Positions 10,103 through 52,036 are shown, counted from the first letter of the stretch. The stretch is DNA of 64,000 nucleotides from Candidatus Omnitrophota bacterium (GCA_016934335.1 JAFGTC010000316.1:5488-69487); one strand, 5' to 3'. The notes: a model not told the origin generated them from the letters alone. Translations and numbers: made by a program.

Positions 10103-10341
10103 TTTTGTCTCCTATAAAAAACTTCTTTTACGCAATATGTCTTTCTTCTAAAATCTCGTCAAAAAAGCATTGCACAAGCAATCATCCATCCTCCTTTCTC
10201 TCCTAGCTAGTTTTCCATGGAAGGACGCCTCCTGAATATTCTACCTTCCATGTCGACAATTTTATCGATAGTATAATATCATAAAACTGGAGGCAAGGGT
10301 GCATCTAAAAAAAACAATGGTGCTTTTTGCAGGGGAAAAAA

Positions 10342-12255: not shown

Positions 12256-12296
12256 AATGTCCCATTCCTGCGTTCGATTTAACGCAATACATAAAT

Positions 12297-13253: not shown

Positions 13254-13299
13254 TTTTATGCTGGATCAACATCACTATTTCATCATGAAAACAAATTCT

Positions 13300-28938: not shown

Positions 28939-29940
28939 ATGAGCGTTGAAGAAAGAACACAGCAATTTCGAGAGCGCTTTATTCATTTAAGACAGGAAAT
29001 CGGAAAGGTGATCGTCGGCAATGAAGACATTATCGACGGCGCATTGATCTGCCTGTTCGCCGGGGGGCACGCTTTGTTGGAAGGCGTTCCCGGGCTGGGG
29101 AAGACTCTGCTGGTTCGCACTATGTCCCAAGCGCTCGATCTCCAATTTTCTCGAATTCAATTCACGCCTGACTTGATGCCCGCCGACATCATCGGCACGA
29201 ATATGATCGATCAAGCCGACTCGGGGCGGCGCCAGTTCCGCTTCGAAAAAGGGCCGGTTTTCGCGAACGTGGTTCTCGCCGATGAGATCAATCGCGCCAC
29301 CCCCAAAACCCAATCGGCGCTGCTCGAGGCCATGCAGGAGCATCGCGTCACATCAGGCGGACAAACTTACACGCTCGAACAGCCCTTCGTTGTTCTAGCG
29401 ACCCAGAATCCTCTGGAAATGGAGGGCACTTACCCGCTGCCCGAAGCCCAACTGGACCGCTTCATGCTTAAATTGATCGTCGAATCGCCCACTCGCGAAG
29501 AACTGACCGAAGTCCTTAAGCGCACCACCGACCGCGAGGATCCTACGCCGGAGGTGATCATGGACGGTTCGCAGGTTCGCGAAATGCGGAGTCTGTGCCG
29601 CGAAGTCCCCATCGCCGCCCATGTCCGCGATTACGCCGTACGCTGCGTCCTGGCCACCCATCCTGGCGGCGAACATGCGACGGCCCTATCCAATCAATAC
29701 GTTCGCTACGGCGCCAGCCCGCGCGGAGCGCAAGCGCTCATTCTCGCGGGGAAAATTAAAGCTTTGCTGGATGATCGATACAACGTGAGTTTTGACGATA
29801 TTCGATCTATACTAAAATCCGCCTTGCGGCATCGCATCATTCTTAATTTCGAAGGAGAAGCGGAGGGAATCACCACGGATCGCATCTTGGATGATATTTT
29901 GGAAAATGTTCCAACCGTGGAAAAAACCGCCGCCGTCTGA
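28939..29940 (+). CDS. MoxR-family AAA+ ATPase
   Basis: Segments VIVGNEDIIDGALICLFAGGHALLEGVPGLGKT, DLMPADIIG, VLADEINRATPKTQSALLEAMQE. It has the typical MoxR length of 333 aa. Confidence 0.9.
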   Translation: MSVEERTQQFRERFIHLRQEIGKVIVGNEDIIDGALICLFAGGHALLEGVPGLGKTLLVRTMSQALDLQFSRIQFTPDLMPADIIGTNMIDQADSGRRQFRFEKGPVFANVVLADEINRATPKTQSALLEAMQEHRVTSGGQTYTLEQPFVVLATQNPLEMEGTYPLPEAQLDRFMLKLIVESPTREELTEVLKRTTDREDPTPEVIMDGSQVREMRSLCREVPIAAHVRDYAVRCVLATHPGGEHATALSNQYVRYGASPRGAQALILAGKIKALLDDRYNVSFDDIRSILKSALRHRIILNFEGEAEGITTDRILDDILENVPTVEKTAAV

Positions 29941-36154: not shown

Positions 36155-39100
36155 ATGAGACAGCGGCAGCTTTTTTTTGTTTACTTTTTATTGATTTTCG
36201 CCACTCTGCACCGCGGGATGGATTCCTGCGCCGAAATGCGGAGCACCCGACACCATGACGCCTCTCATTTCGCGTCTGCATGGACGTCCGGTTTACCGAA
36301 TCAATCTGCAGATCCCCATTTAATCCGCTTGTTCGCCTGGACTTATCGCCGGGACGATTCCACTCAGCCGCCGGTTTTATGGCGGTTCAATCGCTTGGAG
36401 AAGCAACCCGAAATATCCTGGGGCGCTCTGCCGGAGGGGAGCGAGTATTCGAACATAACGGCGGCGCACGGACGGCTTTGGGTATATGTACAAAACGAAG
36501 ACGGGTGGAGCCTCTTTTCTGCCGGCATGAACGCGGAATCCGCCCAATGGCGCCCGGCGAGTTCCAATATCAATGAAAATATAGAAAGTTTCTTTCTCGA
36601 TTCTAACGCCGATCCCCTGTTGATTTTGGAGAAAAATGGGAAATGGTTCGTTCGGACGGGGGGTTTTACCGGCGGGGGGGAGGCGTTGCGATGGGATGCG
36701 ATGCGAGAGATTTCTCTGTTCGAAAAGAATCAATTGACGCGTGAGGCAAAAAAAGAGGATGCGGCGCGCGACATGGTCGGTGAATTTGACCTCCGTTCCC
36801 AAGCGATTCTGCTGGCGTTTTCATGCAAGGAAAACAGGCGGGATGCTGTAAAAATCCGCTATCGAATCAGCGCCGGCAAAACCCGGTCTTATGGCCCCTG
36901 GAGCGAACCGCTGCCCGACTCCGTCATCCAACTTAACCAGCGCGGACGTTACTTTCAATATCAGATTTCTTCTGCGCCGGCGAGCGGGCAAGACGCACTC
37001 ACCTTACCGAATTTGGAATTAATCTACACATTCGATGAGTCCGAACCGCAAAACGAAGCCAAGTCCGTCAAATCCGAAGGCCGGCCGGGAAAAGGCGGAT
37101 CGAGCGCCGGCGCCGGGTTGGGAGCAGCAGTAGGATCAAGCGGTCTTACGGCCGAGGCTGGCGCGGCGGGCGCCGCTGTTTTGGAAAACGCCGGCGATGG
37201 GATGACAAGCGCCGGCGCCGGAAGCGAATCGTCTGATTCTCCTGCAAAAACCGGCGCCGCCGATTCCGGCGATCCGGGAGCAAGTAATTCTCAGGATCAA
37301 ACGCCAGCCGCTTCGCCGGCTCAAGAAGAAAATCCATCTGAAATTGAATCCGACCGGCAGGACGATCAACAAGAAGCAAGCGCCACACTCTCCGGCGATT
37401 CCGCCCTGCAAGAAGAAGATTTTTCACAGGAAGATGCGAAAGAAAAAAATCCCGAAGAAGAGCGCTCAAACCAAACCGAGAACGGCGCATCCCTTCAACC
37501 TCCACCCAATGAACCGGACGCAGATGGTGATTCTTCAGAAGCATCTCCCGAAAGCGAACCGACCGATCCGCAAAGTGTTCCGGATGCGGATCCCGGCCAG
37601 CCCGAATCGACGCCCGACGCCGATCCTCGAAGCCCGGCGTCGTCTCCCTCGTCAAATCCTCCCCATTCTCCTCAAAACCAGCCATTATCCCAAGAGAATC
37701 CTCCTGACGGCGGCGTTGCAGACGATGAGAAAATAGGCGCCGGCAGAGAGACGAACGTTGAATCCGGCTTGAGTGATCATGAAGATCAAGAATCGTCAGC
37801 GCCGGCAATGGATAACCGGAACAAAGCGGGGAAAGGTAAAAAAACCACGGCAGGGCAAGAAAAAACAACGCCGTCATCCGGCATAAATGAAACCAATGAA
37901 TCAGCTGGAGATGCAAAAGAACACAACCCTACGCCGCCGGCGGCGAATCGAGATCAGCTGCAAACGAATCGCGAACCGGCGTCTTTGTCCAACGCATCTC
38001 CTCAAAAAGGCTTCACCGGCGCCAATCAACCGGGCGTTGAGAATACTATTCCACCCGGAGAAGAAGACGGCGCTTCAAACAATGGACATGCAAACTCATC
38101 CTTATCGCCCTCCGATTTCCGGGATCTTCCAAATTCAGCCGGCGAATCTTTGAACAGCCGCCCTGCAGCATTCGCTTCTTCAGGCGGAGCAAGTACAAAC
38201 GCCTCCCGGGTAAAGCAGGCCTCGCCGGAAATTTCGGAAGAAGGCTCGGGATCCAGCGGAACATTGGAAGGGACATGGAAAGAGAGGAATAAGTCATCCT
38301 GGCTGCTGCTCGTTCTTATCATACTTGCGGCGTCCTACGCCGCTTACCGCCTGATGCGCCAATCTCGCACGAAAGGCGCCCCTGTTGAAGTAGATGTTCA
38401 AAATGAAAATTGGCGCGAAGGATGGATTGAAGACCGCCAGGAGCAAAGCGGCGTCTGGGAGGCTGTTCTGCATTTCCATCCCGACGTTAAAGCGGCCAAT
38501 TTAAGCGGCGGCGTCCTTCTGCTCATGAATCAAAATCATGCCGTCAAAAAAGTATCGCTCCCCGATCTATGGTTCCCAAAACCGGCGGAAGAAGAAAACA
38601 ATCCGACTGAAGCCATAGTAAATTTAAAAGCACCAATCGACAGCGCGCAGATGGCGAAATACAGAAACAACTTATTTGTGTTCGGCATAGATTCTCACGG
38701 GCAGGAGAAAGCCCTGCACATTGCGCTTCCCGCCGGCGAAAAAGCAATGAAGGGCAGGAAGATTTCTCATCCAAGCGGATTGCAATCGATCCGCTCCCTC
38801 AAAGCAGACGGCGACATTTTATGGGCGCTGGGCGAAGCCCCGGACGGTCTTCGTGTTTTGGCCGCTTCCATGGGATTTTTAAAAGGGCGTGCCTGGCGCG
38901 AAGAATCCCCGGCCGCGTTGGATAAGGGAGAAATAATAGCGCTTTCCAGCGGCGAAGAAACGATGATCGCTGGAATTCCCGACAAGGATCGAGATCATTT
39001 GTGGATCTTTCAGCAGGAAAAAAACCGGCAAGGGCGATGGCGCGCGGCAGTCAAAACCCGCTTTAACCAAAAAAACGTTCTTCTTTATGCGGCCAGGAAT

Positions 39101-39373
39101 CGCTGCGTCTTGATCGAATCGACCAAGGAGGACGCCTCCATTGGAATTCATCTTTTCCCGCGAGACGAGCAAGGACGTTTTTCGACGCGGGCGGAAAATC
39201 ACGCTCCGGCGCCCCATGCGGGGAAATGGCTCGATCTGGAAATCGCCGGCGGCTGCCTCTACCTATTAGGCCGCGAGACATCCTCTGATCCAGAATCCAA
39301 CTCAGGGAGATTTTGTCTGCTGGCGGCGCGGCTTGGAAATTTATTTCAAGAGAATCAGCCGAAATCGAAATGA
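36155..39373 (+). CDS. 1072-aa single-pass membrane protein. From the N-terminus: signal peptide, a ~280-aa N-terminal domain, a ~400-aa acidic Pro/Ser/Asp/Glu-rich disordered region, a TM helix, and a ~340-aa C-terminal domain.
   Basis: Signal peptide LFFVYFLLIFATLH. Low-complexity stretch ...SEASPESEPTDPQSVPDADPGQPESTPDADPRSPASSPSS.... TM helix SSWLLLVLIILAASYAAYRLM near residue 710. No motif I can name. Confidence 0.6.
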   Translation: MRQRQLFFVYFLLIFATLHRGMDSCAEMRSTRHHDASHFASAWTSGLPNQSADPHLIRLFAWTYRRDDSTQPPVLWRFNRLEKQPEISWGALPEGSEYSNITAAHGRLWVYVQNEDGWSLFSAGMNAESAQWRPASSNINENIESFFLDSNADPLLILEKNGKWFVRTGGFTGGGEALRWDAMREISLFEKNQLTREAKKEDAARDMVGEFDLRSQAILLAFSCKENRRDAVKIRYRISAGKTRSYGPWSEPLPDSVIQLNQRGRYFQYQISSAPASGQDALTLPNLELIYTFDESEPQNEAKSVKSEGRPGKGGSSAGAGLGAAVGSSGLTAEAGAAGAAVLENAGDGMTSAGAGSESSDSPAKTGAADSGDPGASNSQDQTPAASPAQEENPSEIESDRQDDQQEASATLSGDSALQEEDFSQEDAKEKNPEEERSNQTENGASLQPPPNEPDADGDSSEASPESEPTDPQSVPDADPGQPESTPDADPRSPASSPSSNPPHSPQNQPLSQENPPDGGVADDEKIGAGRETNVESGLSDHEDQESSAPAMDNRNKAGKGKKTTAGQEKTTPSSGINETNESAGDAKEHNPTPPAANRDQLQTNREPASLSNASPQKGFTGANQPGVENTIPPGEEDGASNNGHANSSLSPSDFRDLPNSAGESLNSRPAAFASSGGASTNASRVKQASPEISEEGSGSSGTLEGTWKERNKSSWLLLVLIILAASYAAYRLMRQSRTKGAPVEVDVQNENWREGWIEDRQEQSGVWEAVLHFHPDVKAANLSGGVLLLMNQNHAVKKVSLPDLWFPKPAEEENNPTEAIVNLKAPIDSAQMAKYRNNLFVFGIDSHGQEKALHIALPAGEKAMKGRKISHPSGLQSIRSLKADGDILWALGEAPDGLRVLAASMGFLKGRAWREESPAALDKGEIIALSSGEETMIAGIPDKDRDHLWIFQQEKNRQGRWRAAVKTRFNQKNVLLYAARNRCVLIESTKEDASIGIHLFPRDEQGRFSTRAENHAPAPHAGKWLDLEIAGGCLYLLGRETSSDPESNSGRFCLLAARLGNLFQENQPKSK

Positions 39374-39411
39374 GGACGCTTATCCTCTGACGCCGCAACA
39401 GGGAAGTTCGT

Positions 39412-41136
39412 TTACTGCGTTCCCTCGATGCGATTGAGCTCGGACTGCATCTGGCTTTGAATGCGATCAAGGCGAGCCTGTTTATCCAGCCAATCGGCGC
39501 GAATCGCTTCGAAAGGCTTGGCAAGCAGAGAGGAAAGCGACGGCAGAAATTCTTCAAACCATAAATCCCGAAACTCCTCTTCCCCCTCCCGCAATGCGCG
39601 CCGCGCCCCGCGCGCATATAGAAGCGCCAGCCAAACCAGATAGAACACGATCAGAAACAACAGACTTTGCAGCAGAGAAGCGGCCCCGAATAAAGAGATG
39701 AAAATCGATATCAGCTCGCCGAAGCCGCCGATTGACAAGAGCGGCGACTCCGAGCGGGACCATTCCAACAAAAACGGCTGTATAAACGGGAACCAGATCA
39801 GCGGCAGATACACCAGCGATTTTCGCCAGGGGCCGGGAGCGGGCATCGAGGATGATATGCGCTTGACGACTCGATCTTCGTACGCGTCGAGCAGGCGATG
39901 AAATCCTTTTTCAATCGCCGCAGAATAATCCGGCGGCTCATCCAGACGAGCGATCAATTCGGGATGTTTTTCTTCTATATCTCTCCGTATGGAAAGAAGC
40001 CGGGACGAAGCGGATTTTCCCTGCCGGCGCAACAGGTCGCGGGGGGAATCGGAAAACGCATCCGTTCCGCGGGTCAAAGCCATTCGGCCGCCCAAAAAGG
40101 AGATCAGACCGGCCATGGGATGAAAGACCAGCCTCAAAACCGGCCAATGCTGCACTCGCTGAAAGAAGAGCCCGCTGCTGATGCGATGCTGCACCGGCCC
40201 TAAAACAAGGATGCGCTGCCACACCATCTCGAAATACTCGTTATCGAAACATTCGCGCAGACCGTTTGCGATTTCGTCCAGCACCCCGTCCAAAACGGCG
40301 ATGCGGTCGGAGAGCGCGTAATAACTGCGGATTTTTTCTGTATTTTTATTGAACTCGGCGCGCAGATTCTTGACTTTGGCGCGCAGGATTTCTTCGGGCG
40401 AGTGCCGTCGTATCAGCCGCTCGTAAAGGCGCGGATACTCGTATTTTTGTGGATTCAAGGCGGAAATCATTAACAGGCGGTCGCCGGTGGGCGCCGGGAT
40501 GTCGCGCCGGGCGCACTCTTCCTTGAGATAATCCAGAACTTCCCGCCGGGCGGCCTCTAGAGCGACTCGCCCCTCCAACTGATCGATTTTGTTCAGGATG
40601 ATCAGATAATTTTCATGGCTTTGCGCGACCGATTCCAACTGATCGATAAACTCATGGTCGCCGTATTTGCGCGGTGTGATCACCCACACCAATCCCTGCA
40701 AATAGCGCGACAGTTTTTGAACATCGTCGCGATGCGATTGAAAGCGGCTGTCGTAATCGGGAAAGTCGATCAGCACCACATTGCGCAGGAAGTCGCTCTG
40801 ATGGGTTTGATAATCCATGCGATCGCGCATGGCGCCCGCTAAACGCTTCTGAAGAAACGGCTGGTCGGCCTGATGGCAATAAGCAACCGATTTTTTGGTG
40901 CCCTCGTCCAGGATGTCGCTGTCAATGGAGATGCGCGAACCGGCCAGAAGATTGATCAGCGAAGTTTTCCCGACATCCTTTCCGCCCACGATTCCATACA
41001 GGAAAAGATTGTCTTGGCCGGATTCCCCCGTTTGATAAAGCAGGCGGAGGAGCGGCTGATCGGCCGTTTGAGCCAGTTCTTTATTCAATCCGTCTAATTC
41101 GATGCGCAAGTCGTTAATTTTGATCATGACCGGCAA
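39412..41136 (-). CDS. Membrane-associated GTPase (dynamin-like / YfjP-like P-loop GTPase), downstream member of a tandem pair
   Basis: G1 GIVGGKDVGKTS. G3-like VVLIDFPDY. G4 ILNKIDQ. C-terminal hydrophobic paddle LVYLPLIWFPFIQPFLL ... LISIFISLFGAASLLQSLLFLIVFYLVWLALLY. Confidence 0.6.
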   Translation of the reverse strand: MPVMIKINDLRIELDGLNKELAQTADQPLLRLLYQTGESGQDNLFLYGIVGGKDVGKTSLINLLAGSRISIDSDILDEGTKKSVAYCHQADQPFLQKRLAGAMRDRMDYQTHQSDFLRNVVLIDFPDYDSRFQSHRDDVQKLSRYLQGLVWVITPRKYGDHEFIDQLESVAQSHENYLIILNKIDQLEGRVALEAARREVLDYLKEECARRDIPAPTGDRLLMISALNPQKYEYPRLYERLIRRHSPEEILRAKVKNLRAEFNKNTEKIRSYYALSDRIAVLDGVLDEIANGLRECFDNEYFEMVWQRILVLGPVQHRISSGLFFQRVQHWPVLRLVFHPMAGLISFLGGRMALTRGTDAFSDSPRDLLRRQGKSASSRLLSIRRDIEEKHPELIARLDEPPDYSAAIEKGFHRLLDAYEDRVVKRISSSMPAPGPWRKSLVYLPLIWFPFIQPFLLEWSRSESPLLSIGGFGELISIFISLFGAASLLQSLLFLIVFYLVWLALLYARGARRALREGEEEFRDLWFEEFLPSLSSLLAKPFEAIRADWLDKQARLDRIQSQMQSELNRIEGTQ

Positions 41137-42766
41137 ATATCCTCAGTGCGCTCAACAAGGGATCGGATGGATCCATGGTGACGTTCCGGCGAGCCGATTG
41201 AATCTTATGAAGATCCTCCATTAAAGACTCGCGGATGACATCGCGAATCCGCTGTTGGAAGTCGCGCTTGGTTTTTTCGAATTTCCCTAAAGGAAGAAAC
41301 TTGAAGACGCTGGGAATCAACGCCCAACTGCCAAACCCGGGCACGGTGAACACGTCCGCGATCAGAGCCGCCAGCAGGCCAACGGCCAGTAAAGGATCGT
41401 TTTTCAGAGACGCGGAGATGGAGTCGGAAGCGATTAATTCACGGCAATCCTCCTCAAATCGGCGGGCGACGCCGGCCAGTTCCCGGCGGAAGGAAGGATC
41501 GTCCGGCGCACAACTCGCGAAAATATCGCCGATCAATCCCGCGTCTGCATGGCTGTGAAGCGCCTGACTGATCGCTTCGCGATGATCGAAGAGCCGCGCC
41601 GACGCCTCATGGCTCAGTTTGTCGGCATCCAGATGGAGCAAATGCGCGGCGGCGTCTTCGCGGTGGCTGCCGAACGCCAGCGTGAAACTGCTGCGCAGAG
41701 CGCCTTTGGTGGTGATGCGCTTCAAAAATTGAAGAAGGTTGCTGACGCTGAAGCGCTTCAATCCCAGATGCTCCAACACCTGCAGCGCTTCGTCATTCAA
41801 GACGCGATGCATGGGGATCGGCGGTTCGTTGGCGAGCCGCTTCTGAGCGATTTGTTCGGCGCGCTTCTGCAGTTCGACAAAAATTTTGCCCCGCCGTTCA
41901 TTCTCTTTCACCAGTTTTTCGGCGTGCGGCGCGAGCCGATCGAATATCGGCCGATGCGGAGCGCGCGTATTCGTCGTAAAAAGATCGTCGCGAAATCGCA
42001 AAAATTCCGGCTCGCTGTCGAAGATCGGCTTGTCGCCCAAATCGGGCAGCACATGCAGCGTATCCACGCCAAAAAATTCTCGGACGCCTTGTAAATCGGG
42101 ATGATCGAGTTCGATGCGGTCTCGCCCGCGATTGTTGAGGACGCAGAGGCGACGCTGCTGGAGGGATTTCGCCTGCGCGACCGGCTCCTCGTAATCGCGA
42201 TGGTACAACGTTTCTTCATCGACGATGTAAACGACCACATCCAGCCAGGGAAGCAGCGTCATCGCCAACCGGTTTTCATACAGAGCGCGCGTAGTGTTGA
42301 TGTCCGGCAAGTCGAACAGAACCATGCGCTCCCAGGACGCATTATCGGTTAAAATCCAATGGATCGCTCCCGGCGCGCCGGCTTCGGAGCGGATTTGGTC
42401 GAGCGAAAAACATTCCCGCTTCCACCGGGGGAGAAAAAGCGGCGTGAATTGACGCTCGAGATCTTCGAGGCTTTGATGAAAGCGCGTCGAGGAAAGCATG
42501 ACAGGGCCGGAGGTGTTGTGCGCCTTCCAGCCGGTGATGCAGGCCTCCCGCAGGCATAAACTGTTGAAAATCGTGGATTTTCCGCTGCCGGTGCAGCCGA
42601 TGAATCCCACCCAGGGAGGGCGGTTTTCCCCCATCCGCCGGCGGAGGGCGGCCAGCATGGCCAAATCCAAAACAGGCTCGACCTCTTCGGCGGGCAGAGA
42701 CAACGAGCGCAGCCGATCCGCCGAGAGAACCACCGTATCCAAAGCCTGCTGATTCGAATCCGTCAT
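41114..42766 (-). CDS. GTPase (divergent dynamin-like / YfjP-like), upstream member of a tandem pair
   Basis: G1 GFIGCTGSGKSTIFNSL. G3-like MVLFDLPDI. C-terminal hydrophobic hairpin LLAVGLLAALIADVFTVPGFGSWALIPSVF. Overlaps the downstream GTPase gene by 23 bp. Confidence 0.6.
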   Translation of the reverse strand: MTDSNQQALDTVVLSADRLRSLSLPAEEVEPVLDLAMLAALRRRMGENRPPWVGFIGCTGSGKSTIFNSLCLREACITGWKAHNTSGPVMLSSTRFHQSLEDLERQFTPLFLPRWKRECFSLDQIRSEAGAPGAIHWILTDNASWERMVLFDLPDINTTRALYENRLAMTLLPWLDVVVYIVDEETLYHRDYEEPVAQAKSLQQRRLCVLNNRGRDRIELDHPDLQGVREFFGVDTLHVLPDLGDKPIFDSEPEFLRFRDDLFTTNTRAPHRPIFDRLAPHAEKLVKENERRGKIFVELQKRAEQIAQKRLANEPPIPMHRVLNDEALQVLEHLGLKRFSVSNLLQFLKRITTKGALRSSFTLAFGSHREDAAAHLLHLDADKLSHEASARLFDHREAISQALHSHADAGLIGDIFASCAPDDPSFRRELAGVARRFEEDCRELIASDSISASLKNDPLLAVGLLAALIADVFTVPGFGSWALIPSVFKFLPLGKFEKTKRDFQQRIRDVIRESLMEDLHKIQSARRNVTMDPSDPLLSALRIFAGHDQN

Positions 42767-42908
42767 GTTCTTTCACACCTGATTTAAATACGAAGCCATG
42801 ATGCCGCTTATTTCAAAGGTATTTTTGAAGCAAGACGCCCAAAATGAAAGCCCTCGCGAAAAACGAGGGCTTTGCATGCTTCATCTTCAACAGGAAATTT
42901 CGCAAATC

Positions 42909-44303
42909 TTAGAACAGAGACCATTCCGAAACGGAGACCGGTTCGCCGATGTCGCCGATGACATACCGACCATATCCATAGATGCCGCCTTCCCAAAGAA
43001 TTTCACACGCGCCTTCAGCGGCCGTTGAAGGAACATGAACGTCAATTTCACCTTGCGTACCATGCCATTCCGATGTGGCAGCGGGATTTCCTTGGTCGTC
43101 CGTAGCGCCCAGATCATACAATTCAGTATCTTCCGTTGTATTAATTTTATAGTATGATATTATTTTGCCATCTTTTTCTTCCTGCCCGCTGACGTCATGA
43201 ACGGCCAGCCATCCCGGAGCAAAAACGCCGCCGTTGGCCCCATAACTATTCCAACTCGGTGTAGAGTAAGCGATAACATACTGCAAACCATCAGCGGAAT
43301 CCATGTCAGAAATAAACGATGTACGGTAGACATTATTAGGATCGAGACCAAGAGATTCCATATCTTCCGCCGAATATTTTTGAGCCTCCCACAATTCGGC
43401 ATCTTTTACTGCTTCTGTTTCAAAATCATACCAGCGATAAAAAGTTGTACCGGTTCCGCCGTCGCTTCCTGGATAAGTGGAAGCATAAAGAACTGGATCG
43501 AGGTTGACTCCACCATGAACGATGATTTTGCTGGCGCCGCCGCTAGCGTTGCCATATCCATTCGGTACATAGAAAGTTTGGGTAAAGTTAACGCCGTCGT
43601 CCGTCACCAATTTGCGGAAGCCGTGACCTTCCCGCCAAGTTTTACCGCCCGCAAAAATTACGGTATCCGCTCCGCTTCCCATGACTTCCACGTCACCCCA
43701 TCGCCACGAATAATATTGAGCTCCTCCAGAGCCGTCGATGCCATCCGCGGGTACTTCAAAAGCAACGGCAGGCTCTTCAAATCCGCCCTGACCATCCGGC
43801 GCATATCGCAAAATCATATTTTTGTAGCCGACAAAAATTACTCCATCTTCTGAAACTCCCCACTTAAAATAATAGCTATCGGGAGTGCCTCCACCTGCGA
43901 CATATGCATCACTGAGAGGATAAGGCGCAATTCCAACGACCAGGGCTATACCCATCGGTTGGCCTGTGGCAGGATCGATCCAGATCAAGGAACGATCGGG
44001 ATATTCTGCGGCCAGCGCCTCATCGGCGCCCTCAGCGCCTTCAACGATGCCGTTTTCGCGGATGCCAAGCAAAAGTCGCTGATCGTCATAGCGCTTCAAA
44101 CCGGAAAAAGAATCCGTAGGACTATCACCTTGAAACCAAGTGTTATCAAATGGATATCCATCTTGCACTTTCAAGATTTCTACAGGACTATTGCCGGATG
44201 TGTTGAGAAATTCCCAAATCGGCTCAATCTCCTGTGTGAATGCGCAGGGCGTCACTACGCCTGCGATTAATACAATGACAGCCATTCCAAATGCTTTTTT
44301 CAT
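42909..44303 (-). CDS. Secreted Asp/Gly-rich hypothetical protein. Paralogue of 8696..10102. Ends in EWSLF.
   Basis: Signal peptide MKKAFGMAVIVLIAGVVTPCAFTQ. Shares motifs with the 8696..10102 protein. Lies 142 bp upstream of the GTPase pair on the same strand. Confidence 0.6.
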   Translation of the reverse strand: MKKAFGMAVIVLIAGVVTPCAFTQEIEPIWEFLNTSGNSPVEILKVQDGYPFDNTWFQGDSPTDSFSGLKRYDDQRLLLGIRENGIVEGAEGADEALAAEYPDRSLIWIDPATGQPMGIALVVGIAPYPLSDAYVAGGGTPDSYYFKWGVSEDGVIFVGYKNMILRYAPDGQGGFEEPAVAFEVPADGIDGSGGAQYYSWRWGDVEVMGSGADTVIFAGGKTWREGHGFRKLVTDDGVNFTQTFYVPNGYGNASGGASKIIVHGGVNLDPVLYASTYPGSDGGTGTTFYRWYDFETEAVKDAELWEAQKYSAEDMESLGLDPNNVYRTSFISDMDSADGLQYVIAYSTPSWNSYGANGGVFAPGWLAVHDVSGQEEKDGKIISYYKINTTEDTELYDLGATDDQGNPAATSEWHGTQGEIDVHVPSTAAEGACEILWEGGIYGYGRYVIGDIGEPVSVSEWSLF

Positions 44304-44545
44304 CAAAACATCTCCTTTCAACAACAAGAATTGTTAATGAATTAAATTATATACTCAAAATTGATTAAGAAAAGTTATTCGAAGCATTTTTCAAGAAGCA
44401 TATGTCAACAAATCGATTTATTGTCCAAAAAAAATTTCGCTATAGACCGATTGTGATAATTATGGGAAAATACAAACATCCGATCTTCCCCAATTATTCT
44501 TGGCGGAGATTCAATCGAATTCAATGAATCAAGGAGAATGCAGAC

Positions 44546-45997
44546 ATGCAGAATGAAAATCGATTTTTCAAACCAATGATTGTATGGGCGAGCTTAATAG
44601 GGATTCTGATTGGGGGTCATTTGGCCGGCGCGGCGACCGTGACCGTCAATCCCGGCGACAGCATCCAGGCGGCCATTGATTCAGCCGATCCGGGCGATGA
44701 AATCATCCTGAACGCCGGCGTCTATGAAGAAGACATCAACATCGGCGATATGAATGCGCCGCTCAACAGAAAAGACAATATTACTCTCAAAGCCGCGGAC
44801 GGCGCCGATGTGGAAATTCATATTCCCAACTCTGCAAGCCGTCTTGAATTGCTAGGCGGCCTGGGCGCGGATTTCGGCCCGGCGGATCGCATGGGATTTT
44901 TGGTTTATGGAGACGGCGTAACAGTGGAGGGAATTTCCTTCACTCAACTGAGCGGAGAAGTTAATAATTTTGAAATCAGCGTCTTAGTCACCGTCATCAG
45001 CAACGATGTAACCTTCCGAGACTGCGAGTTCATCGGCGTCGGAGCGGAAGCGGCCGGCGACGCCGTGGGATTGGCCGTCACTCCCTTAGACGCCATCGCT
45101 CTTGATCAGGGACTGGGCGGTTTAGCGACCAATCTCACGGTGGAAGACTGCGTCTTCCATGATCTCGCCTACTCCTATGGAAACGCCAATTTTCTCCAGG
45201 AGTTAGGCGTTCCGGCCCCTTCGCCCGAAGCAACTCTTACAGGCTGTGAGTTTTATGACTGCGGGACATGCATCAACATGGATGACGGTCTGGCCACGCT
45301 CGTAGATTGTTATATTCACGACAACCAGGGAACGGGAGTCGACGCCTCCGACGACGGCGTAACCTTGATCAACTGCCGAATCGAAAACTGTCTGGAGCAC
45401 GGGGTCGAGATCAGCGACTCGGAAAGCGAAGACGACGAACCGCAGGAAAATCCGATCGTCACAATCGAGAATTGCCTCATTCTCAACTGCGGAACCGATA
45501 CGAACCATAATGGAATCAATTCCGAACATGGAACCATCACCGTGAAAAACACCGTCATCAGCGGCAGCACCGGACCCAATGTATTTTTCGAAACGGAAGA
45601 CGGCCGCATGACCACGGCGACTTTCGACCATTGCGACATTTACAATTCTTTGATCGGAACCGCCATCGGCACAACCGCCAGCCCCCAAGACGTCATCACT
45701 CTGACTATCACCAACTCCAACATCGTTGATTTAGACGGCATCATCAACGATGCCGGCGCCTTTTCGACCATTACGCTGGATTATTGCAATATCTTTGTCT
45801 CCGGAGAGCCTTACTTACCGGATCAGGAATTCATCACGGCGACCAATATGCTCTCAGCCGACCCCCTGTACGTCGATCCGGATAACGGCGATTTCACTTT
45901 GCAGCCCGGATCTCCCATGGCGACGGCAGGCCAGGGCGGAACATATATTGGTTCGCAAGGATTGGAGACTCGAACGCAAGGCTGGATGCTTCATTGA
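44546..45997 (+). CDS. Secreted right-handed parallel beta-helix repeat protein (pectate-lyase fold; possible polysaccharide lyase/hydrolase)
   Basis: Signal peptide. Motif NPGDSIQAAIDSADPGDEIILNAGVYEEDINI. Many short PbH1-like repeats: ENCLEHGVEISDS, ENCLILNCGTD, NTVISGSTGPNVFFE. Confidence 0.65.
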   Translation: MQNENRFFKPMIVWASLIGILIGGHLAGAATVTVNPGDSIQAAIDSADPGDEIILNAGVYEEDINIGDMNAPLNRKDNITLKAADGADVEIHIPNSASRLELLGGLGADFGPADRMGFLVYGDGVTVEGISFTQLSGEVNNFEISVLVTVISNDVTFRDCEFIGVGAEAAGDAVGLAVTPLDAIALDQGLGGLATNLTVEDCVFHDLAYSYGNANFLQELGVPAPSPEATLTGCEFYDCGTCINMDDGLATLVDCYIHDNQGTGVDASDDGVTLINCRIENCLEHGVEISDSESEDDEPQENPIVTIENCLILNCGTDTNHNGINSEHGTITVKNTVISGSTGPNVFFETEDGRMTTATFDHCDIYNSLIGTAIGTTASPQDVITLTITNSNIVDLDGIINDAGAFSTITLDYCNIFVSGEPYLPDQEFITATNMLSADPLYVDPDNGDFTLQPGSPMATAGQGGTYIGSQGLETRTQGWMLH

Positions 45998-46079
45998 TTT
46001 TATTGCGCCTTTGAAATGATACTTTTCCAGGAATCCAACTACTAACCCGGCGGAGCCGAGCAGCTCCGCCGGGCGATCC

Positions 46080-47381
46080 ATGAATGGAGTCTTAAAAATG
46101 CGAAAACTCGTTTGGAAGCAGCCCATCGGGATGATGCTGATGGCGTTGATTATGGCAATCGCCGCCGCGCCGGCGTGCAGCGAAATCATCGCCCGGGACG
46201 GGAAAGGTTATGTCGAGCGCATCGACGGCCAACTGGTGTTGCACCTGAAGGGAAATCCCTACGAGCTGGGCCGCCAGCACGGCGTTTTATTGCGCGACCT
46301 GGTAAAAAGCAATTTGCTGAACATCACCGACAACCAAGACGAAAAAGGTAAAAGCAAAGAATATCTGCTCTACAAGATGCTGCGCGGCGGCATGCACAAC
46401 AAACTCAAACCGCATATTCCCGAACGATTCATGGAAGAGATGCGAGGATTGGCGGACGGGGCCGGTTTGGAATTCGATGATGTGCTGGCGGGGAACCTTT
46501 TCCCCGAAGCTTTCCATTGCAGCGGCATAGCCCTTATGGGCAAAGCGACCCATGACGGTTCGTTGTATCACGCCCGGCTGCTCGATTACATGACCGACGC
46601 AGGCCTTCAGGATCACGCCGTGATCATGATGGTCGAGCCGGACGGCCAAAACACTTTCGTAAACGTATCCTACGCCGGCTTCATCGGCAGCATCACCGGC
46701 ATGAACGAACAGCAGATTACCATCGGCGAAATGGGAGGCGGCGGCCAGGGCCATTGGGACGGCATGCCCATGAGCCTGCTGATCCGCGACGCACTGGAGC
46801 GCGCATCCGACTTGACCAAAGCATTGAGCATCTTTCATAACACGCCGCGCACCTGCGAATATTATTATGTGATATCGGACGCCAAAATCCCCGACGCGCG
46901 GGGCGTCTATGCAACGCCTCAGCAGATTCATTTCGTCAAGCCGGGAGAAAATTTCGGCCAATTCGACGTCCCCCTCCCCCCGCAAGGCGACAGCGGCGGA
47001 AACCGCACTCTCATCAAAGGCTTCGAACTGATCCATTCGCCGGTGCAGACCTTGATCCAATCGGCGGACGGTAAAGTCATGGGTTTTCTCAATACGCCCC
47101 CGGAAGACTGCGTCATTATTTCCGGCGACGACCGCTACAAAATCTTCACCGAACGGCTGCTGGAAAAGTACGGCCAGGTGGATGAAAAAGTATTTCAGGA
47201 ACTCATTACGCGACCCGTCTCGATGAAAGGCAACCTGCATAACGCCGTCTTTCATCCATCCACCCTGGAAGTCTGGGTCGCCAACGCGGGAGCGGACGGC
47301 GAGCCGGCCTGCAACCAGCCTTATTATCACTATCGCCTGCAAAAACAGGACGAACCTCAACAAACCACCATGGCGAAATAA
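46080..47381 (+). CDS. Secreted Ntn-hydrolase-like protein, possibly peptidase C45 / acyl-CoA:6-APA acyltransferase family
   Basis: Signal or lipoprotein-like N-terminus LMALIMAIAAAPACSE. Candidate Ntn nucleophile in FHCSGIALMGKATHDG. Family assignment is tentative. Confidence 0.4.
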   Translation: MNGVLKMRKLVWKQPIGMMLMALIMAIAAAPACSEIIARDGKGYVERIDGQLVLHLKGNPYELGRQHGVLLRDLVKSNLLNITDNQDEKGKSKEYLLYKMLRGGMHNKLKPHIPERFMEEMRGLADGAGLEFDDVLAGNLFPEAFHCSGIALMGKATHDGSLYHARLLDYMTDAGLQDHAVIMMVEPDGQNTFVNVSYAGFIGSITGMNEQQITIGEMGGGGQGHWDGMPMSLLIRDALERASDLTKALSIFHNTPRTCEYYYVISDAKIPDARGVYATPQQIHFVKPGENFGQFDVPLPPQGDSGGNRTLIKGFELIHSPVQTLIQSADGKVMGFLNTPPEDCVIISGDDRYKIFTERLLEKYGQVDEKVFQELITRPVSMKGNLHNAVFHPSTLEVWVANAGADGEPACNQPYYHYRLQKQDEPQQTTMAK

Positions 47382-47407
47382 CAAATATTCATCGGGAGGA
47401 ATCAGCC

Positions 47408-48856
47408 ATGAACAAATCATCCTGGAGCCGCCGGTCGTTTTGCCGTTATTTGGCGGGAGGCGCAGCCGCCTTGGCCGCGCCCATGAACCTTCATGCCGGC
47501 GCCTCGCCCGCCAAGCCGTGGAACTTTGTCTTCATTCTTGTGGATGATTTAGGATGGAGCGACCTGGGCTGCTACGGCGCCGATCTTCATGAAACGCCCT
47601 ATATCGATCGCTTCGCAAGCCAATGCACGCGCTTCAGCGACGCCTACGCCGCCAGCCCGGTCTGCACTCCCACCCGCGCCTCCATCATGACCGGCAAGCA
47701 CCCCGCCCGGCTCCACATGACCGTCTGGCGCGAAGATACGCTGAGACCTCCCAATCGCAATCGTAAACTCATAACGCCGCAATGCGTCAGCGACCTGCCC
47801 CATGACGAATTCACCATCGCCGAAGCGATGCGAACCTCCGGCCGCCAGACCGCGCACATCGGCAAATGGCACCTCGGCGGCGCGTCGCATTACCCCGAAA
47901 CCCAGGGATTCGACGTCAACATCGGCGGAACCCACTGGGGCGCGCCCAACAGTTTTTTCTATCCCTACCGGGGCGACGAATATTACGGCGAATACCGCTA
48001 TGTCCCCCATCTGGAATTCGGCGAGCCGGGCGAATATTTGACCGACCGTTTAACCGATGAAGCGCTGAACGTCATGGAGAAGATGAAGGACGATCCCTTC
48101 TATCTCCAACTGGCGTTTCATACGGTTCATTCCCCCATCGAAGGCAAACCGGAACTGGTGGAATATTATCAAAAGAAACGAAAAGCAGGCATGCATCATA
48201 AAAATGCAACATACGCCGCCATGGTGCACAGCCTGGATGAAAATGTGGGGCGAGTGCTGCAGAAAATCGATTCGCTGGGAATCGCCGATCGAACGGTGGT
48301 GTTCCTGTTTTCCGACAACGGCGGCGTCGCTAACGAAATCCGGGGTCAATTCGTCACCGACAACCATCCCCTGCGCTCGGGCAAAGGCTCGTTATACGAA
48401 GGGGGCGTCCGCGAACCTTTGATGGTGCGCTGGCCGGGCGTTACCCGGGCGGGGGCCGTCTGCCGCGAGCCGGTCTGTTCGATCGATTTCTATCCTACCA
48501 TGCTGGAGATCGCCGGCATCCCGGGCGACGCCGATCAAAACCGGCGCATGGATGGAATCAGTTTCGCCTCCCTGTTAAAAGATCCCGGCGCCCGGTTGGA
48601 TCGCGAGGCGCTGTATTGGCATTACCCGCATTATTACCCAACCACCACCCCGGTCAGCGCCATTCGCAAAGGAGATTGGAAACTGCTGGAATATTACGAA
48701 GACGGCCATTTGGAATTGTATAATCTCAAAGACGATCTTTCGGAAGTAAATGACCTCGTCCAAAAGAATCCCGGCAAGGCCGCCGCGCTGCACGCACAAT
48801 TACAAAACTGGCGCAGCCAGGTCAACGCCCAACTCCCGACCCCAGGCTCGCCATAA
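47408..48856 (+). CDS. Sulfatase (formylglycine-dependent), TAT-secreted
   Basis: TAT motif SRRSFCRYLAGGAAALAAP. Sulfatase signature VLVDDLGWSD...SPVCTPTRASIMTGK (C-x-P-x-R). GKWHLG. Confidence 0.9.
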   Translation: MNKSSWSRRSFCRYLAGGAAALAAPMNLHAGASPAKPWNFVFILVDDLGWSDLGCYGADLHETPYIDRFASQCTRFSDAYAASPVCTPTRASIMTGKHPARLHMTVWREDTLRPPNRNRKLITPQCVSDLPHDEFTIAEAMRTSGRQTAHIGKWHLGGASHYPETQGFDVNIGGTHWGAPNSFFYPYRGDEYYGEYRYVPHLEFGEPGEYLTDRLTDEALNVMEKMKDDPFYLQLAFHTVHSPIEGKPELVEYYQKKRKAGMHHKNATYAAMVHSLDENVGRVLQKIDSLGIADRTVVFLFSDNGGVANEIRGQFVTDNHPLRSGKGSLYEGGVREPLMVRWPGVTRAGAVCREPVCSIDFYPTMLEIAGIPGDADQNRRMDGISFASLLKDPGARLDREALYWHYPHYYPTTTPVSAIRKGDWKLLEYYEDGHLELYNLKDDLSEVNDLVQKNPGKAAALHAQLQNWRSQVNAQLPTPGSP

Positions 48857-48860
48857 TCGA

Positions 48861-50648
48861 TCAATCCACGCGCTTGATATGCACCGCCTTGAGATCCATG
48901 ACCGTCTCCCCGGGAATGGTCAGCGCTTTGACGCATAATTGCGTCCGGCCCTGGGGAAGACGCATGATCCCCAGATTCAATGGCGCCCATACTTTCTCAA
49001 AGACTTCCTTGCGGGGGACGCGGTCGGGGCTGGGAAGCGGCTCGGGATCGTGCGCTCGATCGACAATCCCGCCGATCTTCTTTCCGCCCGCTTCGACTTG
49101 AATCTTCGCGCCCAGGTTCTCTTCCGCGCATGTGTACATCAAGGTAATTTCATAATTCCCTTCGCGCACGACATCAATTTCCCAGGAAGGATAAGCCTCG
49201 ACGCTGGTCCAGTTCGTCACCCAATCGTTCGCCCAGCCGGACTTCCCGACATAACTGATTCCATCGCCCGCCTCCGGCATTAGAAACGCTTCATGCCCGG
49301 GAAGAACCACTTCGGGGCTTTCGGGACAGCCGACGGAAGTCGGGATGGGATCGAAGCCGTCCTTAGTCGCGTCTTTGTACCAGCGCTCGTATGCGGCGCG
49401 CAGTTTTTTCAACACGGCGGGATGCTCTTGCCCGACTTCATTTTTCTGCCCGGGATCGGCGATCATATCGTAGAGTTCCCATTTTTGCCCCTGCACATGA
49501 GCGCGCCAGCGCTGCGTGCGCGCCGAACCCCGATTCCCCCAATGAGTGAAGATCATGCGATCGGGCCAATCGCGGCCGTCGCCTTCCAAAAGAGACGCCA
49601 GGTTTTTGCCGTCCAGCGGCTTTTCCACATGCAGAGGCGCGCCGCACAGATGCGCGAGCGTAGGCAGCAGATCGAGGTGCGACGCGATCGGCTGAATCAC
49701 CCTCCCCGGCTCGATGCGCCCCGGCCAGCGTACGAACAGCGGTACGCGGATTCCGCCTTCATGAGCGCTTCCCTTGCGGCCTTTCATATCCCCGTTGTAA
49801 CGGTCGCTGTTGGGCCCGTTATCGGTCAGAAACAGAACAATCGTATCGCCCGCCAATTTTAACTGATCCAATGTTTGGAGCAGCCGCCCCAGGTTGTCGT
49901 CAACGTTCTCGCACATGGCGTAGGCGCAGGCCGTCGTATCGTCGAGCCCTCGCGCTTTGTATTTATCGAAATACCTATCAGGGACCTGCCACGGCGAATG
50001 AGGCGCATTATAGGGAACATAACAGAAAAACGGGCGGTCTCGATTCGATCGAATAAACTCGATGGCATAGTCGGTCAACGCATCCGTGATATAGCCCTGC
50101 GCTTTGAACGGCTTCCCGTTGCGTTCGAGAGTTGCATCGAAGTAATTGTTCCAATGCCCGGCGCAAAATCCGATAAATTCATCGAATCCCTGGCCGTTGG
50201 GATGCTGCGGATAATGGGCGCCGTTGTGCCACTTGCCGAAGCAGCCGGTTCGATATCCCGCCGCTCGAAGAATTTCGGCCAGAGTGGTCTCTTCGCTGCG
50301 CATCGTTTCATACCCGCGCGTTACGCCGTGCACGGCGGTGCGCAAGTGATAGCGGCCGGTGAGGAGGCTGGCCCGAGTCGGGGCGCAGACCGGGCTGACA
50401 TAAAACCGGTCGAATCGCGCCCCGGAAGCGGCCAATCGATCCAACACAGGCGTATCGATGAGATCATTGCCGTGCGAGTGGATGTCGCCCCAGCCCTGAT
50501 CGTCGGTCATGATCAAAAGAACATTCGGCTTCCCGGCGGACGATTCACTTGCGGATAGAGCATGCGGGATGGACAGACATCCCGCTCCCGCCGCCGATAA
50601 TCCCACTGCCGACAAAAAACCTCGCCTGGTCAAATCGGATCGATTCAT
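48861..50648 (-). CDS. Sulfatase (formylglycine-dependent), TAT-secreted, with extra C-terminal domain
   Basis: TAT motif LTRRGFLSAVGLSAAGAG. Sulfatase signature LIMTDDQGWGD...SPVCAPTRASLLTGR. GKWHNG. Convergent with the other sulfatase, only 4 bp apart. Confidence 0.85.
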   Translation of the reverse strand: MNRSDLTRRGFLSAVGLSAAGAGCLSIPHALSASESSAGKPNVLLIMTDDQGWGDIHSHGNDLIDTPVLDRLAASGARFDRFYVSPVCAPTRASLLTGRYHLRTAVHGVTRGYETMRSEETTLAEILRAAGYRTGCFGKWHNGAHYPQHPNGQGFDEFIGFCAGHWNNYFDATLERNGKPFKAQGYITDALTDYAIEFIRSNRDRPFFCYVPYNAPHSPWQVPDRYFDKYKARGLDDTTACAYAMCENVDDNLGRLLQTLDQLKLAGDTIVLFLTDNGPNSDRYNGDMKGRKGSAHEGGIRVPLFVRWPGRIEPGRVIQPIASHLDLLPTLAHLCGAPLHVEKPLDGKNLASLLEGDGRDWPDRMIFTHWGNRGSARTQRWRAHVQGQKWELYDMIADPGQKNEVGQEHPAVLKKLRAAYERWYKDATKDGFDPIPTSVGCPESPEVVLPGHEAFLMPEAGDGISYVGKSGWANDWVTNWTSVEAYPSWEIDVVREGNYEITLMYTCAEENLGAKIQVEAGGKKIGGIVDRAHDPEPLPSPDRVPRKEVFEKVWAPLNLGIMRLPQGRTQLCVKALTIPGETVMDLKAVHIKRVD

Positions 50649-50668
50649 GGTCGCTCTCCTCTTCAAAT

Positions 50669-52036
50669 TCAGGGCGCCGCGATTGCCCGTTGGACGCATT
50701 CTTCGACAACCTGTAATCCTTCCATCAACGCTTCTTCGTTGATGCACAGGGGTGGATTGATCTTGATCGCTCCCCCGCCGACGCCCACCGGAGCGAAAAG
50801 CATCACCCCGTTCTCCACGCAGTTCCAGACGATGCGCGATGCCAGTTCCTTATCCGGCGTCGTGGTTCCCGGCTCGACGACTTGAAGGGCCGCCACCAGA
50901 CCTTTGCCGTCCACTGCGCCGATGCGTCCGTTGGATCCCGCCATGATTTCGCGGCATCGCTGCAAAAGAGGCGCTTCCAAACGAGCGGCGTTCTCGATCA
51001 ATCCCTCTTTTTCAATAATATCGATGCTGGCCAGCGCCGCCGTGCAGCAGAGCGGATTGCCCGAATGGGTGCTGGTCATCTCGCCCGGGCCGTAGAGATC
51101 CATCACGTCCGCCCGGCCGATCACCGCCGAAAGCGGCAGGCCGCTGCTGATCCCCTTCCCGCAGCAGATCAGATCGGCGGAGACGCCGTAATGCTCGAAC
51201 CCAAACCACTTGCCGCAGCGGCCGAAAGCGGCCTGCACTTCATCGAAGATAAGCAGGACGTCATGTTCGTCGCACCATGCGCGCAAACGCTGCGCATACT
51301 CAATCGGCATAAAGGCGGCGTTGGCGCCGGGGTAGGTTTCCACCATCACGCCCGCAATCTTCTCGCCGCTCAAGTTCTTTTCCTCCAGCGATTTCAGAAA
51401 CAGATCGAACGATCGGTCGGTCACCCGGAAGCCGTCCGGATAGGGAACTTGAACCATGTCGGGATCCAAGTTCACGATCCAATCTTTCTGGGCCTGAAAT
51501 CCGCCGGCCATCTGTGCGCCCAGCGTGCGGCCGTGAAAATCGTTGATGAATCCCACGATGGTTATTTTAGAAGCGCCATGCCTGCGCTTGCCGTAGGTGC
51601 GCGCCAGTTTAACGGCGCACTCGGTCGATTCCGCACCGGTCGTCAGCAGAAACACTTTCTCCAAGGGAACCGGCGCCAGAGATGCGAGTTTCTTCACCAA
51701 TTCCACACGCGGCTGATTGACGAAGCAGTAACTATGCAAGAGTCCGCGATCGATCTGCGCATGCAGAGCGTCGCGCATCGCTTTGGGGCCGTGGCCGGCG
51801 TTGGTCACCAGCACGCCGCTGGAAAAATCAATCCACCGGTTGCCGTACGCATCCCACACCGAAAAATCCTCCGCGCGATCCCAGACAATCGGCGGCTGCC
51901 CGCTCATGGAGCGCGGCTCATGGCGGATCAGTTTTTCCAAAAGATCAACGCTCTCCGGAGCGGGAACGGGCGTCGCGATCCGGCGGTATTTTGTTTCCAA
52001 TTGTGCTAAATTTCTGTCGGGCATATCTGTCTCCAA
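50669..52036 (-). CDS. Class III PLP-dependent aminotransferase (aspartate aminotransferase superfamily)
   Basis: 455 aa. PLP Lys region ICCGKGISSG. Segments VLLIFDEVQAAFGRCGKWFGFEHYGVSADL and VTNAGHGPK. Antisense ORF 50882..52009 rejected. Confidence 0.85.
   Translation of the reverse strand: METDMPDRNLAQLETKYRRIATPVPAPESVDLLEKLIRHEPRSMSGQPPIVWDRAEDFSVWDAYGNRWIDFSSGVLVTNAGHGPKAMRDALHAQIDRGLLHSYCFVNQPRVELVKKLASLAPVPLEKVFLLTTGAESTECAVKLARTYGKRRHGASKITIVGFINDFHGRTLGAQMAGGFQAQKDWIVNLDPDMVQVPYPDGFRVTDRSFDLFLKSLEEKNLSGEKIAGVMVETYPGANAAFMPIEYAQRLRAWCDEHDVLLIFDEVQAAFGRCGKWFGFEHYGVSADLICCGKGISSGLPLSAVIGRADVMDLYGPGEMTSTHSGNPLCCTAALASIDIIEKEGLIENAARLEAPLLQRCREIMAGSNGRIGAVDGKGLVAALQVVEPGTTTPDKELASRIVWNCVENGVMLFAPVGVGGGAIKINPPLCINEEALMEGLQVVEECVQRAIAAP

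Follow-up and report, generated by a model that had tools for sequence, protein, structure and literature searches.

A probable tandem pair of divergent dynamin-like proteins conserved in Hinthialibacterota and Planctomycetota

Tandem encoding of two diverged dynamin-like proteins (DLPs) is the norm in bacteria (PMC4159319). Among the described systems are DLP1/DLP2 of Campylobacter jejuni (PDB 5OWV/5OXF), a heterotypic tandem dynamin pair (entry 5OWV bears the title 'oligomerised bacterial dynamin pair ... tethering of membranes'), BDLP1 of Nostoc punctiforme (PDB 2J68/2J69) and IniA/IniC of Mycobacterium (PDB 6J72). The genes of BDLP1 and IniA each have another DLP gene as a tandem partner (PMC4159319; PMC6715688), and IniA functions in membrane fission (PMC6715688). 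DynA of Bacillus subtilis, in which two DLP modules work together, has roles in membrane tethering/fusion, membrane surveillance and phage tolerance (PMC8844932, PMC12998192, bioRxiv 10.1101/363689). The present analysis concerns a 64,000-nucleotide stretch of DNA from Candidatus Omnitrophota bacterium (GCA_016934335.1 JAFGTC010000316.1:5488-69487; hereafter the window) and, within it, positions 36155-44303, where four adjacent genes encode a large acidic membrane protein (the giant), two GTPases (A and B) and a secreted protein. A preliminary description had proposed that the four form one uncharacterised envelope or membrane-remodelling module. The results indicate that the only evolutionarily coherent unit in this region is a two-gene operon, GTPase B followed by GTPase A, and that its products are probably two divergent bacterial DLPs, built like mitofusin and BDLP, that make up a heterotypic pair. 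Tandem DLP pairs have already been described (PMC4159319; PDB 5OWV) and are not a new kind of system. The analysis provides a predicted fold-level identity for two genes conserved across two phyla related to the Planctomycetes-Verrucomicrobia-Chlamydiae group, and removes the four-gene system as a false lead.

Conservation was surveyed at loci anchored on GTPase A, of which 10 places (7 distinct loci) came from exact-protein look-ups; 80 more, from among 234 genome hits, were obtained by scanning a single genome for each GTDB species. Neighbourhoods in 88 sources were compared by tblastn with the window proteins and by all-against-all clustering of open reading frames (ORFs). GTPase A was present in all 88 sources, and in 78 of them GTPase B was immediately 5' of it in the same orientation (median offset -1.7 kb). 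Four more loci contained an upstream ORF of 481-600 aa with a P-loop and D-T-P-D that was not scored as a B homologue by tblastn, and the remaining loci without an upstream B were mostly contig ends. The pair ranges over approximately 23 Hinthialibacterota-type species and Planctomycetota (Phycisphaerae, Tepidisphaerales and Planctomycetia), which would extend the known range of tandem bacterial DLPs to these two phyla. The proposal that the two GTPases constitute a co-oriented, overlapping unit is thus borne out. The window proteins are identical to database entries JXR73_23690 and JXR73_23700 of a metagenome-assembled genome labelled 'Candidatus Omnitrophica bacterium'. Among the nearest relatives are Ca. 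Hinthialibacter antarcticus and SURF_12, members of Hinthialibacterota (OLB16), a phylum once assigned to Omnitrophota for which degradation of sulfated polysaccharides has been described (PMC9324843). Neither dynamin nor GTPases are mentioned in that paper, and no report found on bacterial dynamin-like proteins with Planctomycetes describes this pair, as judged from titles and abstracts.

Both genes are on the minus strand, with GTPase B (550 aa by ORF listing) at 41114-42766 and its downstream partner GTPase A at 39412-41127. GTPase A is 571 aa from the ATG at 41127 and 574 aa from a TTG at 41136; the ATG is the likely start because homologues are 566-580 aa in length and the NCBI gene model is 571 aa. 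From this start the end of B and the start of A overlap by 14 bp (41114-41127), as read directly from the sequence. An overlap of 23 bp, reported in the preliminary description, is obtained only if the TTG is used; the overlap itself stands at the shorter length. The two genes usually overlap in relatives as well, or abut (an 11-bp overlap in loci L001, L004 and L006; a 1-bp gap in L002), and the gene overlap suggests translational coupling of B and A. Downstream of the pair, 25 nt past the GTPase A stop codon, a consensus scan placed a weak terminator-like hairpin with a T-rich tail (39362-39387, minus strand) that overlaps the stop codon of the giant. This is weak evidence, since the promoter and terminator sites returned by that scan were no more numerous than in shuffled sequence and a real hairpin elsewhere in the region was missed.

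The structures of GTPases A and B were predicted with AlphaFold from 42 and 48 homologues, yielding confident models with pLDDT 85 and pTM 0.71 for A and pLDDT 80.5 and pTM 0.74 for B. Each model has an N-terminal helix and a G domain of approximately 200 residues, the rest being all-helical and including hydrophobic segments. For GTPase A the predicted order is N-terminal helix, G domain, helical bundle, transmembrane (TM) hairpin (approximately aa 440-511) and a long C-terminal helix; for GTPase B a hydrophobic paddle or hairpin is predicted at approximately aa 449-493. Kyte-Doolittle hydropathy marked segments 465-511 (plus 440-460) in A and 457-480 in B, which fall in helices of model A and in a low-confidence loop (449-493) of model B. 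Fold searches aligned GTPase A with EHD4 (score 18.3, 205 aa aligned), chain 5owv_A of the C. jejuni DLPs (17.3, 197 aa), MFN2 (17.3, 245 aa), Fzo1 (17.3, 291 aa), IniA (16.9, 224 aa) and SynDLP (16.1, 210 aa), and GTPase B with Fzo1 (17.4, 240 aa), EHD4 (15.2, 206 aa), MFN2 (15.1, 206 aa), SynDLP (14.9, 244 aa) and IniA (14.2, 231 aa); 334 aa were aligned in the comparison with chain 5owv_C. In a Foldseek search with GTPase A the leading matches, aligned over the full length, were BDLP (E 1.6e-10), IniA (E 7.9e-9), both C. jejuni DLPs and SynDLP, followed by dynamin 1, Drp1, OPA1 and Mgm1, and all 50 of the top 50 belonged to the dynamin superfamily. The features of the dynamin class that were found comprise a G domain flanked by a helical neck/trunk bundle and a C-terminal hydrophobic hairpin, both in the predicted models, and the tandem gene pair. 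The statement in the preliminary description that no function could be assigned from sequence was consequently wrong for the GTPases, the models of which fold as dynamin-like proteins, and its view of them as membrane-active agrees with the predicted dynamin-superfamily folds and hydrophobic membrane hairpins.

Several results weigh against this assignment. The Foldseek TM-scores, at 0.25-0.34, are low, which may come from differing hinge states. The G domains, at approximately 200 aa, are small for dynamins and their G3 motif is not D-x-x-G. The Pfam Dynamin_N model (PF00350) scored 17.5 bits with B and 11.6 bits with A, below the gathering cut-off of 27, and PDB sequence and profile searches with the GTPases gave P-loop-level matches only. 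The association of A and B as a heteromer is, furthermore, a proposal by analogy. PF00350 is nevertheless pre-computed on a number of homologues, some flagged as weak, and a Phycisphaerales homologue scored 23.4 bits. All Pfam and NCBIfam matches of the two proteins were weak and to P-loop, MMR_HSR1 or Dynamin_N models, and database names for these genes are 'hypothetical' or 'GTPase domain-containing', with 'GTP-binding protein EngB' in some sources (JGI). The last name, together with best sequence-level matches to the P-loop regions of Era, Der and EngB, is what speaks for both proteins being ordinary TRAFAC GTPases of ribosome assembly or cell division (Era, EngA, EngB). This is highly improbable, since the scores were 23.5 bits for Era against an equivalog cut-off of 237 and 14.5 for Der against 306.7, over only some 30 residues around the P-loop, and since the window proteins are approximately three times longer, with predicted helical bundles and membrane hairpins, and in fold searches the dynamin superfamily ranks first with full-length alignments.

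The reading as a DLP pair is accompanied by unusual nucleotide-binding motifs. A P-loop is present in both proteins, with G1 GGKDVGKT, G3 DFPD and G4 NKID in GTPase A, and G1 GCTGSGKS and G3 DLPD in GTPase B, where NNRGRD is found in the position expected for NKxD. The G3 consensus of the GTPase superclass is DxxG, and DxPG in dynamins. The glycine is replaced by aspartate in 88 of 89 GTPase A homologues scanned (D-[FLM]-P-D), and D-L-P-D was found in 69 of 76 GTPase B homologues scanned; as the D-x-P-D form also occurs in the Planctomycetota copies, it extends to both partners in two phyla. NNRGRD is likewise a conserved stretch of the GTPase B family, which is without the canonical guanine-specificity motif, and the presence of NKxD in A but not in B suggests an asymmetric pair. 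With its conserved D-x-P-D and a degenerate G4 in only one of the two proteins, the pair is a natural experiment on how much change the dynamin nucleotide cycle tolerates. No similarity between A and B was detected by BLASTP, whereas HHalign aligned the profile of A with that of B at a probability of 97.9 % (E 4e-13, 249 columns). The two are old, distant paralogues.

Compared with the described systems, the pair resembles DLP1/DLP2 of C. jejuni in being a heterotypic tandem; however, the identity is no more than 12-21 %, the proteins of the window have fewer residues (550-571 versus approximately 600-700 aa), their G3 is D-x-P-D rather than D-x-P-G, B is without NKxD, and the hairpin of A appears to be truly transmembrane and to lead into a long C-terminal helix. 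Of the full-length alignments that Foldseek produced for GTPase A, those with BDLP1 and IniA were the best, and both proteins share with it the organisation of G domain, neck, trunk and membrane paddle, although the TM-scores are approximately 0.27, the Dynamin_N threshold is missed by the window proteins, G3 differs, and longer hydrophobic helices are predicted in place of the paddle. The eukaryotic fusion DLPs mitofusin and Fzo1 (PDB 6JFK, 9KFD, 5GNT) are alike in fold only: the window proteins are bacterial, approximately 200-300 aa shorter and encoded as a heteropair. DynA is the most likely functional analogy, set apart in being described as a single fused polypeptide with peripheral membrane binding.

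Since neither GTPase has a signal peptide, A and B would be located at the cytoplasmic face of the inner membrane, anchored there by their hairpins. By analogy with C. jejuni DLP1/2, DynA, IniA and BDLP, they probably associate as a hetero-oligomer in which nucleotide-dependent dimerisation of the G domains and hinge movement of the helical bundles would tether and deform the bilayer. GTPase A, with the canonical NKxD, would be the guanine-specific motor and GTPase B, lacking it, is probably an asymmetric or regulatory partner; replacement of the switch-II glycine in both (D-x-P-D) would be a signature of the subfamily. The membrane would thereby be fused, divided or sealed, in the service of its maintenance or repair; the predicted dynamin-superfamily fold and membrane hairpins make such a remodelling or repair role reasonable. 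A more far-reaching and rather unlikely interpretation of the same motifs is that the pair represents an undescribed, ancient heterotypic DLP subfamily of Hinthialibacterota and Planctomycetota in which D-x-P-D in both partners and loss of the guanine motif in one give an asymmetric and mechanistically distinct nucleotide cycle, the pair being a dedicated membrane-scission or membrane-shaping machine and not a factor for stress repair. Cell division that is unusual and in part FtsZ-independent is known from Planctomycetota, as is extensive membrane invagination.

DLPs also serve in phage defence, as for DynA (PMC8844932, PMC12998192), and LeoBC, of the Eleos system (LeoA/LeoB/LeoC) of enterotoxigenic E. 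coli, is a PADLOC model, so that the pair could be an anti-phage system of the Eleos or DynA type instead of serving housekeeping membrane maintenance. GTPase B gave a very weak match to LeoBC (E 0.03, 11.4 bits); however, PADLOC returned no significant match for either GTPase and none at all for A, and neither an arrangement like the split LeoB/LeoC nor a pathogenicity- or defence-island context was seen. No other defence genes are adjacent, synteny is stable across Hinthialibacterota, with ClpC-McsB-McsA-aminotransferase upstream and DUF5610-SIS/PGI downstream, and conservation is vertical into Planctomycetota, unlike that of a mobile defence island. A defence function in place of membrane maintenance is therefore quite unlikely. 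The stable chromosomal synteny and the lack of a significant PADLOC match favour housekeeping or stress maintenance by the DLP pair over mobile defence, roles that are not mutually exclusive.

The usual context in Hinthialibacterota is ClpC-McsB-McsA-aminotransferase-(500-aa protein), divergent from B-A-DUF5610-SIS/PGI, and no part of it was found in the window. The small, soluble DUF5610 protein (approximately 220-250 aa) is encoded directly 3' of GTPase A in 17 Hinthialibacterota loci (L001 11805-12488, L004 12173-12880, L026 11831-12583 and 14 others), usually with the SIS/PGI gene next, and the DUF5610 gene is the real recurrent third neighbour of the pair. A copy in the window was not found by tblastn, the giant abutting GTPase A there instead, and a literature search on DUF5610 found no paper. 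Several metagenome-assembled genomes (MAGs) labelled Desulfobacteraceae or Desulfobacterales (L015, L023, L027, L029 and L030) have A/B pairs that fall inside the Hinthialibacterota clade of the GTPase A tree, which suggests mis-binned contigs or mislabelled MAGs.

The secreted protein is encoded upstream of GTPase B at 42909-44303 on the minus strand (464 aa from the MKKAFG start at 44303; the longest ORF reaches 44327). As previously described, it has a signal-like N-terminal segment, ends in SEWSLF (...VSVSEWSLF) and is separated from GTPase B by a 142-bp gap. The suggestion that the three minus-strand genes form one transcript is contradicted by an intrinsic-terminator-like hairpin with a U-tract lying between the secreted gene and B (at about 42841-42877, minus strand; RNA fold), with a dG of -21.4 kcal/mol, a z of -3.73 and none of 200 shuffles folding as well; it is this hairpin that the consensus scan missed. 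The hairpin indicates that the secreted gene is its own transcription unit. Hairpins in the same place were recognised by eye, unfolded, in L006 (nearly identical in sequence) and L004 (analogous). No sequence support was obtained for the 'propeller-like' label, since HHalign self-comparison of the profile revealed no internal repeats. The protein had also been called a paralogue of a second W-x-L-F protein of the window (8696-10102, minus strand), with which BLASTP detected no homology, only the last approximately 8 residues being common. Pfam and NCBIfam gave no match to the secreted protein, and a PDB search with its family (A3) found nothing.

The secreted gene is located directly upstream of B in the window, in L006, in L004/5/9 (one species) and probably in L011, where the contig starts with ...GVADWSLF* approximately 425 bp upstream of B; the linkage thus counts 4 loci, or 5 with the L011 contig-end fragment, and approximately four lineages besides the window copy. 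The linked loci form two neighbouring subclades on the GTPase A tree. L008 and L026 are closer to the window than L004 on that tree, yet have an OmpA-like or a TPR gene in the place of the secreted gene. The family is large, with 86 homologues detected, several per genome, and it reaches Verrucomicrobiota, where members carry fused LamG or galactose-binding-like domains. GTPase genes are not adjacent to any of the three closest homologues inspected (53 %, 48 % and 42 % identity), the surroundings of which are unrelated and in part linked to carbohydrates. Recurrence of the gene upstream of B in approximately four lineages amid otherwise differing contexts weighs against complete independence and may reflect a loose functional link. 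It could be taken further, as a three-gene unit in one Hinthialibacterota subclade in which the exported W-x-L-F protein cooperates with the two DLPs, perhaps as an envelope factor with export or turnover coupled to membrane remodelling; adjacency on the same strand and the different flanks at each linked locus are in its favour. This is rather unlikely, however, given that the gene is absent upstream in L008, L026, all of the approximately 15 other Hinthialibacterota lineages and 57 Planctomycetota loci, that a strong terminator follows it in the window with similar hairpins visible in two relatives, that the nearest homologues are not beside GTPases, and that the multi-copy family with its Verrucomicrobiota fusions points to glycan biology. 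The secreted gene is a facultative upstream companion of the DLP pair in one subclade, outside the conserved unit.

To the right of the secreted gene the window encodes a beta-helix/DUF5123 protein, an AAT-like protein and two sulfatases (44546-50747), and in L088 a homologue of the secreted protein is beside a GHL6/fucosidase-like gene. The sulfatases and beta-helix proteins of the window fit with the degrader lifestyle described for the phylum (PMC9324843). The secreted protein may function in polysaccharide degradation rather than with the GTPases.

The giant (36155-39373, plus strand; 1072 aa by ORF listing) converges on GTPase A with the stop codons 38 bp apart. Its acidic, membrane-spanning character was confirmed: hydropathy analysis predicts a signal peptide, an N-domain, a 410-aa acidic disordered linker (residues 301-710) with a net charge of -46, a single TM segment (715-735) and a C-domain. 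No relationship was detectable between the N- and C-domains, Pfam and NCBIfam gave no match, and a PDB profile search with the family (A4) returned low-complexity noise only. The family, identified with HMMER in 1.84 billion representatives, is rare but real, with 37 matches of which approximately 25 are full-length with the N-domain/linker/C-domain layout (a signal peptide, an N-domain of approximately 280 aa, a long acidic Pro/Ser/Gly-rich linker and a C-domain of approximately 340 aa, preceded in at least some members by a TM segment). It appears uncharacterised and could prove more interesting than the module first proposed. A relationship between the families of the giant and the secreted protein was considered and rejected (HHalign, 13 %).

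In the window the giant, which is divergent from cyclophilin-dnaX, ends a block with the order recR-ybaB-dnaX-cyclophilin-giant, and a homologue in L091 (4519-7881) is divergent from cyclophilin-cyclophilin-dnaX-ybaB, the block that also lies to the left of the window giant. Two MAGs with the GTPase pair carry the giant on another, GTPase-free contig (L092, 340-3729, versus L008; L093, 8001-11282, versus L014). Because the giant keeps the dnaX block and is apart from the pair in relatives, the junction between the giant and GTPase A (39373/39412) is a synteny breakpoint, and the giant belongs to the dnaX-cyclophilin block and not to the GTPase unit. No homologue was found in the 87 other GTPase loci by tblastn and ORF clustering, nor is the convergent neighbour of GTPase A in L006 a homologue of the giant. 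In L091 and L093 the giant is followed by a convergent gene for a secreted protein of approximately 310-323 aa that is absent from the window.

These results decide the fate of the four-gene module. The four ORFs are present by ORF listing with the positions, strands and spacings that had been reported, and the convergence of the giant on the minus-strand genes was confirmed from the sequence. That the giant, GTPases A and B and the secreted protein make up a single dedicated apparatus for envelope remodelling, outer-membrane vesicles or repair is suggested by this physical adjacency and by complementary predicted locations (exported, bitopic membrane and membrane-anchored cytoplasmic GTPases). 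Co-conservation, the lack of which the preliminary description had itself named as refuting the module, failed: the pair was found in nearly all loci, but the giant in 0 of 87 and the secreted gene in approximately four lineages. Three homologues of the giant are without a GTPase neighbour, two of these on other contigs of pair-bearing MAGs; the giant retains its dnaX-peptidyl-prolyl isomerase synteny; and the secreted gene is separately terminated and mostly unlinked. Such an apparatus is thus extremely unlikely. The four-gene neighbourhood is a chance juxtaposition at a rearrangement junction, the giant and the secreted protein being independent genes that rearrangement brought beside the DLP pair.

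The C-terminus of the secreted protein provides a second by-product that could exceed the four-gene proposal in interest. A tag of the approximate form [PA]-V-x-[DEK]-W-x-L-[FY]-COOH occurs at the ends of exported proteins from several unrelated families. In Hinthialibacterota sources 15 of the 588 ORFs with a minimum length of 150 aa carry it, against approximately 0.14 expected from composition, and in Planctomycetota loci none of 1679 ORFs does; the 15 ORFs represent approximately 9 distinct proteins of several unrelated families. The sites in the window are 42909-42935 and 8696-8722 (both minus strand), and elsewhere tagged proteins are encoded in L002 (12478-15114 and 15600-16814), L013 (14057-15988 and 17644-19122, both minus strand), L014 (6330-9383, minus strand), L004 (6701-8053), L006 (4931-6262) and L011 (1-35). 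A signal-peptide-like N-terminus is present on all tagged ORFs except L002 15600-16814, the start of which may be mis-set, and no TM helix precedes the tag. NCBIfam sorting-signal models gave no match to the single tagged protein scanned (42909-44327). The tag is a candidate lineage-specific C-terminal sorting or anchoring signal.

A tRNA scan found none. The second W-x-L-F gene of the window (8696-10102) is 3' of two VWA genes, BatA/VWA at 10342-12255 and DUF58/VWA at 12297-13253, in a minus-strand cluster (8696-14127) that looks like a Bat/MoxR-type aerotolerance-like cluster by its gene content, and a separate MoxR AAA_3 ATPase gene is located at 28939-29940.

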